Shown: in pieces, positions 22,321 to 26,372 of the stretch
How the letters are laid out: every line of letters starts with the position of its first letter
Position numbering within the stretch: position 1 is the first letter of the stretch
Assembly (NCBI GenBank): GCA_903936565.1
Contig: CAIZVZ010000006.1
Span: forward strand, 29,436 to 93,435
Direction: 5' to 3'
Origin: an uncultured bacterium
GTDB lineage: Bacteria > Patescibacteriota > Minisyncoccia > Phycocordibacterales > CAIZLB01
Length of the DNA stretch: 64,000 nucleotides
Translations under genes and position numbers: made by a program
The notes under the pieces: generated by a model
What the model was told of the DNA's origin: nothing
Databases searched by the model: none
Seen by the model: only the letters and a program-made list of their open reading frames with translations

Positions 22321-25300
22321 TTAATTTTCTGTTGTATTAGGCACTCGATCACATTTAAAGTTTATCTCGTATGGATCAGATGAAAGGGAGAATGATGGAT
22401 TTTCATCATCAGTCACCTTAGTCACACATGAGAGCTTGTGCCTACCAATGGTAACAGGATATTCAGATACTGAGTTATCAGCCCCGAAACCATCTAATGT
22501 ACAAACTGTATAACTTAGATCGGACAAATTTGACCTTGGCACCCAATTTACAGAACATTTCGACGTGGTTTCACTAGCATATGGTTTATCAAATGTTAAT
22601 TTCATGGTCAACTTAGGCTTGACACACTTAGCGATCTTGTACACAGGATTATCTTCAGATTGAATACCATCAATATAAGGACACATATCACCCTTACAGG
22701 AAGTAGAACATTTCCCAGTATCAGAACAATAATTTAATCCAGCCTTACATCTTGCAGAACATTTTCTTTCATTGGTGGAACTTTTACACACCCAAGACCA
22801 AACACTAGGATTTGATTGTGTAATGAGACTAGATACCGCAAAGCCTGTGGATGTTTGCATAGCTGGACATAAATTAGTGGAACCACTTTCCAAACCTTGA
22901 TTATCCAACACTTCGGAAACACCACAACCAGCACTTACATTACTACAATCACCAGAAGGACAATTGACACTCAACGCAGGACATTGCCCTTGTTCCAATA
23001 CAGTGTTATCTAATGCCACCTGAAGTTCCGCTACTTTTTCACCAGGTGAATCATATGACAAACTACCATTCTTTGTATATGCCGAATTAGGACTTGCTCC
23101 ATCACCAAAACTCCACGAGTATGACAATAAGGATGAATTTCCAGAAGTGGCAAAATTAGCGTCGAAACGAAAACTCTCCCCTACTGGTATGTTATAGATA
23201 ATGTCGCCTGCATTATTCTTAAAGATACAACTCAATAAATTAGTACAAGCTCCCGTATCTTGATTTAACTTCCAAGAAGCTTCACCCGTAGTACAGGTCA
23301 CATCATTACTTCCCTGGCATTGTGGCAATGGAGGTACCCAATTACCTCTATTAAAGTTCCAAGAATACGGCGTCGTGCTGTAATAACACATCTTGTTATT
23401 CCAAGGCCCCAACTCTATTATATCCATTTGAGCAGCTGTGTAATCAGATTTTTTACCAGCATGACGACTTGAAAAATTTACAGTACACACACCATCATAA
23501 CTCCCACTTATAACATTATACTTCTTAGATGGAGCAGAGAACGTAGAAGTCTTAGGGGTTCCCTTAGAAAAATTAAACAAATCATACCTTGTGTTAAGCC
23601 AACTCGTACCGTTAGAATCTATCAAAACATAGAACTGATCCCCATTATTTAAGGACGGCATATATTGGCAAATATTCATTGACAAACTTGCGGTACGACC
23701 CCTACTATTATTACCCCCCGAAGCCCTACTTGCTGTAACGTACGAATTGATACCATTTGAAAACTTTGTGTATTTTGGATAAGTACAGAGCGGTACTGAA
23801 ATTAAATTATTTGGCTTATTAAACATTATATTCATCTCACTTTCAGGAATATTTCTACACGCTGCAGAATTGGACAAAGAGCCAACCTCTTTAATTGTGA
23901 CACTGGCATTTGTAAATTTTGAAGACTTACCCACATATTGACTTGTTGCCACAACGGAATTGGCGCCATCGTAATAAACAGTATGTTTATTACTTTTACG
24001 AGTGTATGGTTGATATACAACAGTTTTTGCTGTACCGAAAATAAATTCAGAATAAGCATACTCCTTATCTACCCAATCAGAATTTTGAAGATCAGTTATT
24101 ACATAGAATCTGTTTCCACTAACAATACCTGGCATATTAGCACTTACATCTAAACTCGAGCCAGAAGCAGCTTTACCACCCGAAATTATCAATCCGCCCG
24201 CAACAGGGGTTGAATCCATCGTGCAAGCACCGATTGTAGACTCACAATTCCATACAGCTGGAGTACCTGAATCACAAATTTTCTCTCCCTCCTTGTGAGA
24301 ATTATCGCAACTAAGTGCTTGTGGCTCTGATTGTCCAGCGTACGCAAGTGTGCCTAAATCACCAATTAGCTGATTACTTGGAAGTAATACTAGTATTGGT
24401 TGTGTAACCTTTTTTATAACAACATTTCTTTTGGCACTATCAGCAATAGCAACATAGAATGTGAAATTATATGAACCCGGGACATTAGACACATTATAAT
24501 TTCTATTAGACGAAACATTGACCGAATTACTTAAGGTCATTTGATTTATAGAAATATTTGGTACATCCCAATTGTTCCAACTGTTTTGATCTGGAGGTAA
24601 TAAATAATATATACTATATGTTGAGGCGCTATTCTTGTTTACCAATAGACTTACATTAAAGGAATCACCTGGAGTATAAAATGATATAGCACTAGGCAAT
24701 GGAGAAGATACACCACTTATTGCAAAAGAACTCGCTAGTGAGACGTCACCGGTTGATACTACATCAGATGAACTAAATGCCAGAGCTGTATTACATGATG
24801 ATAAAAACAAACTAAAGATAATAAACATGGATACACGTATCTTTTTCTTGGAATTTTTAACAGAAGACATATTTTTCCTTTTATTTCTAATAAAACTAAC
24901 AATCATCAATGTTGCTATAAAGATAAGTATCACCAAAACATAGTACATCAGACCGTCAGACTTCTTTTCTGGGTATAGAATATTTACCTCTTCTTCTGAT
25001 GGTAGAGTACTTGAATACGAATCGATTACAACACCGGCATTATCCCTTATCTCTGCAGATATATTTAAATACTCAGCCTTATATTTCGATTTAGCAGGTA
25101 TTACTATCGAGTTGTTATATAAACTTAAATCTACTGGCAATGTAGCGCTAAGTATTTCAACATCATCTTCGTTTTTTACGGACAAAAATAGAATTGCGCC
25201 AGACATTCTTGAATTAATTTCAAGATCCTCTGTTTTGCCATAACCATCATAATTAACAGTTAAATTAAATTTTTCATTTTTCGACAAAGAAAAATGGTCA

Positions 25301-26166
25301 GACTTTATGGCTGTTATACTAGAGGACAAACCACCTACAATAAAATTTACTGAAATGGGGTTTATTGGGTGAGAATATGAATCATCATTATTGAATTTTA
25401 TCTTTGCGGAATATTTTCCTGGAGTAAGTTCGTCAGTAGGTATATTTAATTCATATTTTCCACTTTTATTCTGTTTGTTTAGTGTGGCCCTTACAGGTAA
25501 ATTCGCAACAATATTACTATCGACGTCATAAACCTCGATAGAGGTAGACGATGTATTAACAGAATCCAATCTATAAGATATAGATAACTTATCGTTTTTT
25601 TCTAGAACCAATCCATAATCCTTATCATAGACAATTCCGTTTCTAAAGATGTTAATCTCGGAAGGAATTGTGATTTTGAATTGTGGTTCACCTCGCACGT
25701 ACATATTTTGGCTACCCGTAGTGATTACAGTCCCGTTCTGTAGATATATCGTTATTATTAAATCAACATTACCAGATACAGTAGTAGGAACAGCATAGCT
25801 AAAATCAATATCTCTTTTTGAATTTTCTTTTACATAAGGAATTGAAAATCTTGGTGATTCACCCAACGGTACACCAGACTCATTATTAAGTGACAATACA
25901 TAATAACTATCTTGCAAATTATCATTACCTATATTGGATAACGTAAATGTACCAGATACATCCCCACCAACAACAACCGGAGCTTTATTCAACTTGATTG
26001 GGTAAACATATAGATCAACCTTTTTTGCACCCGTATCTGTGCTGGTCATGCTATTAGATTCTGCAGTCACATATTTAATTCCAAGTGCCTGTGTACTGTA
26101 GAATAAAATTGAAGTTAATAATAAAACAGAGAAAATTATAAAGACGTTTATTGATTTATTAATCAT
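22321..26166 (-). CDS. Giant (about 1280 aa) secreted or cell-surface protein. N-terminal beta-sandwich-like repeats, a central TM pair with a lipobox-like LSSC, and a long Cys-rich C-terminal region
   Basis: Signal peptide MINKSINVFIIFSVLLLTSILFY (the track start at 26214 looks like a spurious extension). Internal hydrophobic segments YYVLVILIFIATLMIVSFI and MFIIFSLFLSSC. Many paired Cys (CDNSHKEGEKICDSG...CESTIGACT, CSARCKAGLNYCSDTGKCSTSCKGDMC). Confidence 0.6.
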   Translation of the reverse strand: MINKSINVFIIFSVLLLTSILFYSTQALGIKYVTAESNSMTSTDTGAKKVDLYVYPIKLNKAPVVVGGDVSGTFTLSNIGNDNLQDSYYVLSLNNESGVPLGESPRFSIPYVKENSKRDIDFSYAVPTTVSGNVDLIITIYLQNGTVITTGSQNMYVRGEPQFKITIPSEINIFRNGIVYDKDYGLVLEKNDKLSISYRLDSVNTSSTSIEVYDVDSNIVANLPVRATLNKQNKSGKYELNIPTDELTPGKYSAKIKFNNDDSYSHPINPISVNFIVGGLSSSITAIKSDHFSLSKNEKFNLTVNYDGYGKTEDLEINSRMSGAILFLSVKNEDDVEILSATLPVDLSLYNNSIVIPAKSKYKAEYLNISAEIRDNAGVVIDSYSSTLPSEEEVNILYPEKKSDGLMYYVLVILIFIATLMIVSFIRNKRKNMSSVKNSKKKIRVSMFIIFSLFLSSCNTALAFSSSDVVSTGDVSLASSFAISGVSSPLPSAISFYTPGDSFNVSLLVNKNSASTYSIYYLLPPDQNSWNNWDVPNISINQMTLSNSVNVSSNRNYNVSNVPGSYNFTFYVAIADSAKRNVVIKKVTQPILVLLPSNQLIGDLGTLAYAGQSEPQALSCDNSHKEGEKICDSGTPAVWNCESTIGACTMDSTPVAGGLIISGGKAASGSSLDVSANMPGIVSGNRFYVITDLQNSDWVDKEYAYSEFIFGTAKTVVYQPYTRKSNKHTVYYDGANSVVATSQYVGKSSKFTNASVTIKEVGSLSNSAACRNIPESEMNIMFNKPNNLISVPLCTYPKYTKFSNGINSYVTASRASGGNNSRGRTASLSMNICQYMPSLNNGDQFYVLIDSNGTSWLNTRYDLFNFSKGTPKTSTFSAPSKKYNVISGSYDGVCTVNFSSRHAGKKSDYTAAQMDIIELGPWNNKMCYYSTTPYSWNFNRGNWVPPLPQCQGSNDVTCTTGEASWKLNQDTGACTNLLSCIFKNNAGDIIYNIPVGESFRFDANFATSGNSSLLSYSWSFGDGASPNSAYTKNGSLSYDSPGEKVAELQVALDNTVLEQGQCPALSVNCPSGDCSNVSAGCGVSEVLDNQGLESGSTNLCPAMQTSTGFAVSSLITQSNPSVWSWVCKSSTNERKCSARCKAGLNYCSDTGKCSTSCKGDMCPYIDGIQSEDNPVYKIAKCVKPKLTMKLTFDKPYASETTSKCSVNWVPRSNLSDLSYTVCTLDGFGADNSVSEYPVTIGRHKLSCVTKVTDDENPSFSLSSDPYEINFKCDRVPNTTEN

Positions 26167-26372
26167 GTAAATATTATACACCAAACACAAACAAATACAC
26201 ACATATATATACACCGACTTAACGAAGATATAATTTATTCACACGATAAATTACTAAATGAATATTTTACAAACCAATTATAGTCCCCCACTGTACTATG
26301 TGGGTTATTTGGTTGGCCATATGACAACATATTATCTAAAATAAAACCTTAAATCAATACAAATGGACTGAG

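Follow-up and report, generated by a model that had tools for sequence, protein, structure and literature searches.

In this study, which was based on a 64,000-nt stretch of DNA from an uncultured bacterium of the Patescibacteriota (contig CAIZVZ010000006.1; the whole stretch is referred to below as the window), we analysed a giant minus-strand gene that lies upstream of a type IV pilus locus. Our conclusion, which we regard as somewhat probable, is that this gene encodes a bipartite, polyprotein-like surface protein of an undescribed Patescibacteria family, which is predicted to be cut by signal peptidase I after Ala463 and which likely has a role in adhesion. In the proposed course of events, the Sec machinery would export the first ectodomain, the first transmembrane helix (TM1) would halt the transfer and leave a basic loop in the cytoplasm, and the second hydrophobic segment would restart export as an internal signal peptide, after which signal peptidase I would cleave behind Ala463. 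The products would be an N subunit that is anchored by the membrane hairpin and a free, disulfide-rich C subunit, which would be kept at the surface either via the N subunit or via its own terminal domain. The function would be close-range binding to the surface or envelope of a host cell.

The open reading frame is uninterrupted on the minus strand (window 22321..26214), and the long protein that an earlier sequence-only reading of this DNA had proposed is real, comprising 1281 residues when counted from the ATG at 26166, the start that agrees with the orthologs and the public gene calls (Table 1). The GTG at 26214, which is the start given in a mechanical list of open reading frames, would add 16 residues that are present in no ortholog. 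The GC content of the gene equals that of its surroundings. A perfect TATAAT (window 26173-26178, minus strand) ends 6 nt ahead of the ATG at 26166, a codon that lacks a preceding Shine-Dalgarno motif, and the mRNA may therefore be leaderless or have a very short leader. In a scan for promoters and terminators, matches were no more frequent than in shuffled controls. The N-terminal signal peptide described in the sequence-only reading is there as a hydrophobic, signal-like segment, and so are the hydrophobic helix, the basic stretch and the second hydrophobic helix with LSSC (residues 405-426, 427-444 and 445-463, respectively). The second of these helices has a core, MFIIFSLFL, that is followed by a polar c-region, SSCNTALA; together with the positively charged n-region, the shortness of the hydrophobic core and the agreement with the -3/-1 rule, the internal segment has the sequence features expected of a signal peptide.

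The comparison with a wider family supports this assignment. The same cassette, which consists of a transmembrane helix, a Lys/Arg loop, a signal-peptide-like segment and then a Cys-rich ectodomain, was found in all of the 25 relatives that were read. These proteins fall into four subfamilies and carry at least three unrelated kinds of N-ectodomain, which are mutually undetectable by profile comparison. Their cassette helix is an uncharged run of 14-30 residues, while the loop is 4-38 residues long and has a net charge of +2 to +11, with acidic residues almost absent (25/25). An Ala at -1 and A, S, V or I at -3 were present 19-25 residues past the loop in every one of the 25 proteins. When the local residues were shuffled, the chance of finding the motif in the right place was about 0.20 per protein, and the joint chance of the A/S/V/I-x-Ala placement in 11 diverse representatives was 2.5e-9. 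The final 5-8 positions of the segment are polar or charged (K, R, D, N, Q, S, T), as in a c-region (e.g., GYKVSTA/D, VDKVKA/S and GSKAHA/Q, in which the slash marks the predicted cut), and the N-terminal signal peptides of the same proteins show an equal xxA/ ending. Ahead of the hairpin, most of the cassette proteins have 0-1 Cys, with up to 5 in the L003up type, and after it 8-33; that the Cys lie almost entirely past the hairpin, with all 30 invariant in the orthogroup of the window protein, is as expected of an exported, disulfide-bonded module. The N-terminal signal peptide, the positive-inside loop and the invariant Cys strongly imply that both halves are exported, and from the conserved -3/-1 motif and the c-region we infer cleavage after Ala463. 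The cassette was absent from proteins that matched through the PKD domain only, which also lack the repeat domain and the terminal domain described below.

Judging from the distribution of its homologs, the fusion of the two halves is genuine and old. A search of 5.8 billion proteins returned just three relatives, each of them full length, with identities of 100%, 55% and 40% (BLASTP, local); over the full alignment, the full-length orthologs are 58% (P0002) and 42% (P0003) identical to the window protein. One further full-length lineage, P0004, with 1290 residues, came from an exhaustive profile search that covered 1.84 billion representatives. The identical gene was present on at least 12 contigs from several independent samples, and one relative came from a metagenome-assembled genome (MAG) labelled Candidatus Saccharibacteria, on which the assignment of the giant protein to the Saccharibacteria rests. 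The artificial fusion by a sequencing error that the sequence-only reading had considered is ruled out because the identical gene occurs in independent assemblies and these full-length orthologs exist. The orthologs retain both of the hydrophobic segments as well as the basic loop, which is 38 residues long in P0002, and all 30 of the downstream Cys are invariant in the ortholog alignment. Ectodomain 1 is more divergent (49% identity to P0002 and 33% to P0003) than ectodomain 2 (62% and 46%, respectively).

Ectodomain 1 is homologous to the N modules of P0007 (hhalign 99.4%) and P0022 (87%), but it matched no Pfam family above the threshold, the best being Por_Secre_tail (E 0.002) and ZirS_C (E 0.004), and the N-module profile had no match among the PDB sequences. 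Internal repeats were not detected in a crude segment-versus-segment hhalign comparison, and hence the beta-sandwich-like repeats that had been attributed to the N module were not confirmed. Likewise, the count of Cys in the C-terminal 818 residues is 30 rather than the more than 40 previously given; they are grouped in knots with spacings of 4-11 residues. The first ~160 residues of ectodomain 2 are nearly private to the orthogroup in the exhaustive profile search. They are followed by two copies of a repeat domain of ~130 residues, which is common to proteins of roughly 900-1000 residues and has the signature VNxC...FYVxxD...SxW...RYxxFxFxKG...KxNV...YDGxC...YxG...ExG...C in a 37-sequence alignment (A5). 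This single-domain alignment replaced an earlier one (A4), in which MAFFT had smeared partial fragments across the query. Structure prediction with AlphaFold2 was confident for the repeat domain (predicted local distance difference test score, pLDDT, 85.1; predicted template-modelling score, pTM, 0.81) but poor for the whole 818-residue C module, for which three sequences gave an all-beta model of low confidence (pLDDT 48). A fold search with the repeat-domain model found no close structural neighbour and only a weak resemblance to lectin, carbohydrate-binding module (CBM) and phage receptor-binding modules, and the model suggests a novel beta-sandwich domain. PKD_4 was the sole Pfam family above the threshold in the whole protein, NCBIfam gave no match above the threshold, and when profiles made from the N module, the C module and the repeat domain were run against the PDB sequences, the sole matches were collagenase PKD domains, which were weak (E 0.004). 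In the exhaustive profile search, the single PKD domain draws unrelated multi-PKD proteins by the hundreds. Apart from this domain, the Cys-rich region corresponds to no described domain family in Pfam, NCBIfam or the PDB, and the known, well-described family that the sequence-only reading had considered for it did not turn up.

A shared terminal four-Cys domain of ~100 residues was found in 22 of the 25 cassette proteins, i.e., those whose C-terminus is available. When the subfamily profiles were compared with each other, these domains aligned to the last residue, with the four Cys and the penultimate Glu in register (hhalign 94.5%, E 7.5e-8). The extreme C-terminus (window 22324-22353, the last 10 codons) follows the pattern C-x-[RSK]-x-[PN]-x-x-x-E-x-COOH, which is kept in every subfamily (e.g., CDRVPNTTEN, CSRVPVSHEN, CRINPAFNEI, CYSNPDIREN and CSKAPDTIER) in a comparison that took in 24 of the 25 terminal domains. 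Because the distance of this pattern to the carboxyl end is fixed, a recognition or sorting role is suggested. A BLASTP comparison of the L003 upstream protein with the window protein was not significant, and their kinship was established for the terminal domain only, by profile comparison. The search with the terminal-domain profile (A8) returned 225 candidates and one fragment of the window protein, and is no measure of the size of the family. A metagenome scan (A9) yielded two short contigs; L010 represents the P0002 lineage. Contig L011, the GC content of which jumps from 0.40 to 0.60 and which has stops in all of the upstream frames, was discarded as chimeric. The only other domains in the relatives are generic FN3 domains, and all of the family members that bear a name are annotated as hypothetical proteins. 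Since one of the cassette proteins comes from a Candidatus Parcubacteria MAG, the family reaches at least two Patescibacteria lineages. What was a single odd open reading frame can now be treated as a defined, searchable family, in which the cassette and the terminal four-Cys domain are constant, while the N-ectodomains, the ~130-residue beta-sandwich repeat and the PKD or FN3 modules vary.

For the junction, the sequence-only reading had offered two alternatives: a single protein that contains a membrane hairpin, or a pair of secreted modules that are fused in frame and have an internal re-initiation. The fusion and the hairpin segments stand, but the re-initiation finds no support. That two separate proteins are made, either from a gene whose stop codon was lost by an assembly or sequencing error or by re-initiation at the internal ATG at 24870 (Met433), has a nearly negligible probability. 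It is true that the ribosome-binding site that had been suspected is represented by an AGGA 6 nt before this in-frame ATG (the junction DNA reads AAAAGGAAAAAT-ATG, with no stop codon upstream) and that the sequence beginning MSSVKNSKKK would make a good n-region of a signal peptide. However, the AGGA and the ATG both lie inside the basic loop, where the AGGA falls within the AAA/AGG/AAA codons for Lys and Arg, and Met433 is missing in P0002 and P0004, i.e., in two of the three other lineages, as well as in most of the 25 cassette proteins. The open frame is identical in the independent assemblies and is shared by the full-length orthologs, and a promoter-like site just upstream was not seen, although this is a weak test. 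The proposed lipobox did not withstand the comparison either, and it is very improbable that, in this lineage, Lgt and Lsp process LSSC so that ectodomain 2 becomes lipid-anchored at Cys458. The lipobox consensus is [LVI][ASTVI][GAS]C, and LSSC, which is preceded by KNSKKKIRVSMFIIFSLF, fits it after a basic n-region and a hydrophobic core; lipidation would also settle the anchoring of ectodomain 2. Nevertheless, the orthologs have LSTA (P0002), LSMP (P0003) and TSFA (P0004) at this position, Cys458 is absent from every other cassette protein examined, and what is conserved is the downstream x-x-Ala. The motif stands 455 residues into a conserved single open reading frame rather than at an N-terminus, and neither an lgt nor an lsp gene turned up here. 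As neither the lipobox Cys nor the internal Met is conserved, there is no support for lipoprotein processing or for internal re-initiation, and the evidence points to a third option beyond the earlier alternatives, in which the second segment serves as an internal Sec-type signal peptide.

A two-armed surface protein that stays uncleaved, in which a permanent membrane hairpin anchors the middle and both ectodomains remain on one polypeptide, is possible, if doubtful. The hairpin is conserved together with the positively charged loop, the second segment with its c-region (19-25 residues) is long enough to span a bilayer, and the retention of ectodomain 2 on the cell would need no further explanation. 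What such a protein leaves unexplained is the Ala at -1 and the small or aliphatic residue at -3 in 25 of 25 highly diverged sequences amid variable neighbours, the polar or charged, c-region-like end of the segment, and a near relative that seemingly uses the equivalent segment as an N-terminal signal peptide. This relative, P0035 (locus L012, 1-260), appears to be a gene for ectodomain 2 alone, with a stop codon and AT-rich sequence upstream; a segment homologous to the internal signal peptide of the fused relative P0048 sits at its N-terminus, and the start would be TTG or ATG. If genuine, P0035 would support both the signal-peptide reading and an origin from two genes. Several points weigh against the cleaved, bipartite protein that we favour. 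The cleavage is predicted only, and with its 19-25 residues the segment might equally be an ordinary membrane-spanning helix. Once cleaved, the C subunit would have no evident anchor, and the model of the whole C module reached a pLDDT of only 48. The split variant P0035 rests on 166 nt at a contig end and could be an assembly artefact. Finally, the gene adjoins the pilus genes in only two of the four ortholog lineages and lies outside the pilus operon.

It is also conceivable, if rather unlikely, that the architecture is as described but that its role is other than host adhesion, for instance that of an envelope or S-layer-like structural component or of a capture or defence protein. None of the known lectin or adhesin families was matched significantly, the orthogroup is rare (four lineages among the 1.84 billion representatives), and its genomic context is variable and of a housekeeping kind (tgt/uvrB, ddl). 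On the other hand, the middle domains and the N-ectodomains vary among the paralogs around constant anchoring parts, which is typical of receptor-binding proteins, and PKD and beta-sandwich modules are common in adhesins. The predicted domain content, with one PKD domain, all-beta predictions and a weak fold resemblance to lectin, CBM and phage receptor-binding modules, is typical of a surface protein. In Saccharibacteria, essential surface adhesins have been reported, and close-proximity adhesins were proposed to act after the type IV pili (PMC10633639, PMC12206443). Beyond these pili, little is known of how ultrasmall episymbionts recognise and hold their hosts. Additional close-range adhesins have been called for (PMC12206443, PMC10633639).

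The individual export signals are familiar, and it is their combination, in an undescribed family of probable host-interaction proteins, that is undescribed; in the literature on the surface biology of Saccharibacteria and on internal signal peptides, no description of such an architecture was found. The closest analogy is offered by the viral glycoprotein polyproteins with internal signal peptides, such as bunyavirus Gn-Gc, alphavirus E2-6K-E1 and flavivirus prM-E. In both cases a signal peptide, an ectodomain, a stop-transfer transmembrane helix and a short basic cytoplasmic segment are followed by a second segment that serves (here by prediction) as the signal peptide of the next ectodomain, with a small-x-small cleavage site and a disulfide-rich downstream ectodomain. 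The viral proteins, however, are cut by the signal peptidase complex of the eukaryotic endoplasmic reticulum, whereas the giant protein is cellular, belongs to a monoderm-like bacterium and has a predicted cleavage only, and there is no relationship between them in sequence or fold. Among bacteria, the cytochrome b/c1 precursor FbcH of Bradyrhizobium japonicum, reportedly described by Thony-Meyer et al. in 1991, is said to give two proteins from one gene via an internal signal peptide. It would be a bacterial precedent for a fused precursor that signal peptidase divides at a signal sequence lying inside it, after transmembrane segments. It differs from the giant protein in that it is a subunit of a respiratory complex whose upstream partner is polytopic, stands alone instead of belonging to a diversified surface family, and is non-homologous.

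The N half, with its signal peptide, Cys-poor ectodomain, transmembrane helix and Lys/Arg tail, resembles the sortase-anchored Gram-positive adhesins (LPXTG, MSCRAMM type), but in the giant protein the "tail" leads into a second exported module, and the ectodomain of those adhesins is predicted to be beta-rich. A sortase substrate was rejected: the sequence before TM1, LYPEKKSDG, differs among the subfamilies and there is no conserved LPXTG-like motif. The NCBIfam model NF058670 reached 18 bits on the helix and tail against a cutoff of 32. With PKD surface proteins and the PKD modules of collagenases, the giant protein shares one PF18911 domain (residues 993-1054), which makes up ~5% of its length. 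The type IX secretion C-terminal domain is comparable by analogy only, in that the four-Cys domain is always at the extreme C-terminus, has a fixed end motif and is all-beta in a low-confidence model; it gave no match above the threshold, and the Por_Secre_tail hit concerns the N module only and lies below the cutoff. To our knowledge, Patescibacteria have neither an outer membrane nor a type IX system.

If the cleavage is true, this would be a rare natural case of the processing of a bacterial polyprotein by signal peptidase and the first in the form of a diversified surface-protein family. By analogy with Gn/Gc, we tentatively propose, as an idea with less than an even chance, that Patescibacteria build host-recognition complexes by a polyprotein strategy, in which an anchored subunit and a disulfide-rich, receptor-binding subunit would be split by signal peptidase and held together at the surface, while swappable N-ectodomains and middle domains around the constant cassette and terminal domain would encode host specificity. 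Annotators will probably take genes of this kind for gene fusions or lipoproteins.

Downstream of the giant gene is a complete type IV pilus locus, whose gene content resembles that of the T4P-1 (twitching) locus of N. lyticus (PMC12206443). The position beside this locus that the sequence-only reading had emphasised holds insofar as pilM is 1.2 kb away, but not as membership of the pilus operon, as two genes intervene, one for a phosphatase and the other, in the opposite orientation, ComF-like. The ComF-like gene is arranged in the same way in the P0002 lineage, and the phosphatase gene is absent at the corresponding site of that locus. Proximity to the pilus genes is a weak link to host attachment: of the four ortholog lineages, only those of the window and P0002 show this adjacency; the P0003 ortholog is flanked by another cassette protein and ddl, and the P0004 ortholog by tgt and uvrB. 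No match to N_methyl or to a class III signal was found in the giant protein, while six neighbouring pilin-like genes have one. A component of the type IV pilus was therefore rejected, given the lack of an N-methylation motif and of a conserved co-location with pil genes. Cassette proteins often stand in tandem: a paralog of ~1400 residues with an unrelated N-ectodomain lies directly upstream of both P0003 and P0009, the genes of which are both followed by ddl, and a cassette paralog of 1823 residues lies 8 kb from P0004.

Table 1. Positions of the giant gene, its parts and other features (window coordinates unless a locus is named; a slash within a sequence marks a cleavage site)
Feature	Position	Strand	Evidence or remark
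Whole gene	22321..26166	-	1281 codons and stop; ATG at 26166 backed by orthologs and public gene calls
N-terminal signal peptide, residues 1-27/29 (MINKSINVFIIFSVLLLTSILFYSTQA/LG)	26080..26166	-	hydropathy and alignment with ortholog signal peptides (e.g., ..YSFA/Q); cleavage site inferred
Ectodomain 1, residues ~30-404, ~375 residues, Cys-free	24955..26079	-	sequence, alignment
TM1, residues 405-426 (GLMYYVLVILIFIATLMIVSFI), 22 uncharged residues, putative stop-transfer anchor	24889..24954	-	sequence, family comparison
Cytoplasmic basic loop, residues 427-444 (RNKRKNMSSVKNSKKKIR), 18 residues, nine Lys/Arg, zero acidic	24835..24888	-	sequence; location predicted
Internal signal-peptide-like segment, residues 445-463 (VSMFIIFSLFLSSCNTALA)	24778..24834	-	predicted signal peptidase I site ALA/F after Ala463
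Lipobox-like LSSC, residues 455-458	24793..24804	-	only in this lineage
Ectodomain 2, residues 464-1281, 818 residues, 30 invariant Cys	22324..24777	-	alignment
Repeat domain copy 1, approx. residues 668-794 (..FYVITD..W..KEY..F.FG..YDG..)	23785..24165	-	profile matches to both copies in orthologs; boundaries approximate
Repeat domain copy 2, residues 797-953, eight-stranded beta-sandwich	23308..23778	-	37-sequence alignment A5; AlphaFold2 model
PKD domain, residues 993-1054	23005..23190	-	PF18911 (PKD_4), 36 bits vs cutoff 27
C-terminal Cys-rich region, approx. residues 1067-1281 (~215 residues)	22324..22968	-	common to Saccharibacteria-type relatives of 850-980 residues, always C-terminal
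Terminal four-Cys domain, ~105 residues, end C-x-R-x-P-x-x-x-E-x-COOH	22324..22638	-	common to all subfamilies
Low-molecular-weight phosphatase family gene, downstream neighbour	21834..22271	-	absent at corresponding site of P0002 locus
ComF-like phosphoribosyltransferase gene, opposite orientation, between giant gene and pilM	21131..21805	+	same arrangement in P0002 lineage
Type IV pilus locus: pilM, N/O-like genes, pilB, response regulator, pilT, pilC, two pilins, prepilin peptidase, four minor pilin-like genes	8331..21137	-	gene content
Neighbouring cassette paralogs	L003 1-4068; L008 5738-9961; L007 21776-23394
Intron-split tRNA	exons 2395-2428 and 2127-2164; intron 2165-2394	-	in silico excision gives a 72-nt tRNA, anticodon CAT

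Elsewhere in the window, a group I intron recognised by Rfam (56.7 bits) interrupts a tRNA gene (window 2127-2428, minus strand), which adjoins an intact tRNA-Met(CAT) and a tRNA-Asp. A stretch of 11 kb encodes three Peripla_BP_6 solute-binding paralogs, which have hydrophobic segments at the N-terminus (52684-53796, 55451-56554 and 62472-63617, all on the minus strand). Additionally, a membrane protein of the DsbD_2 family that carries a fused HMA domain (36877-37950, minus strand) stands next to an HMA P-type ATPase (37952-40246, minus strand). The two are probably a metal-handling pair, which is of note because the giant protein needs extracytoplasmic disulfide chemistry.

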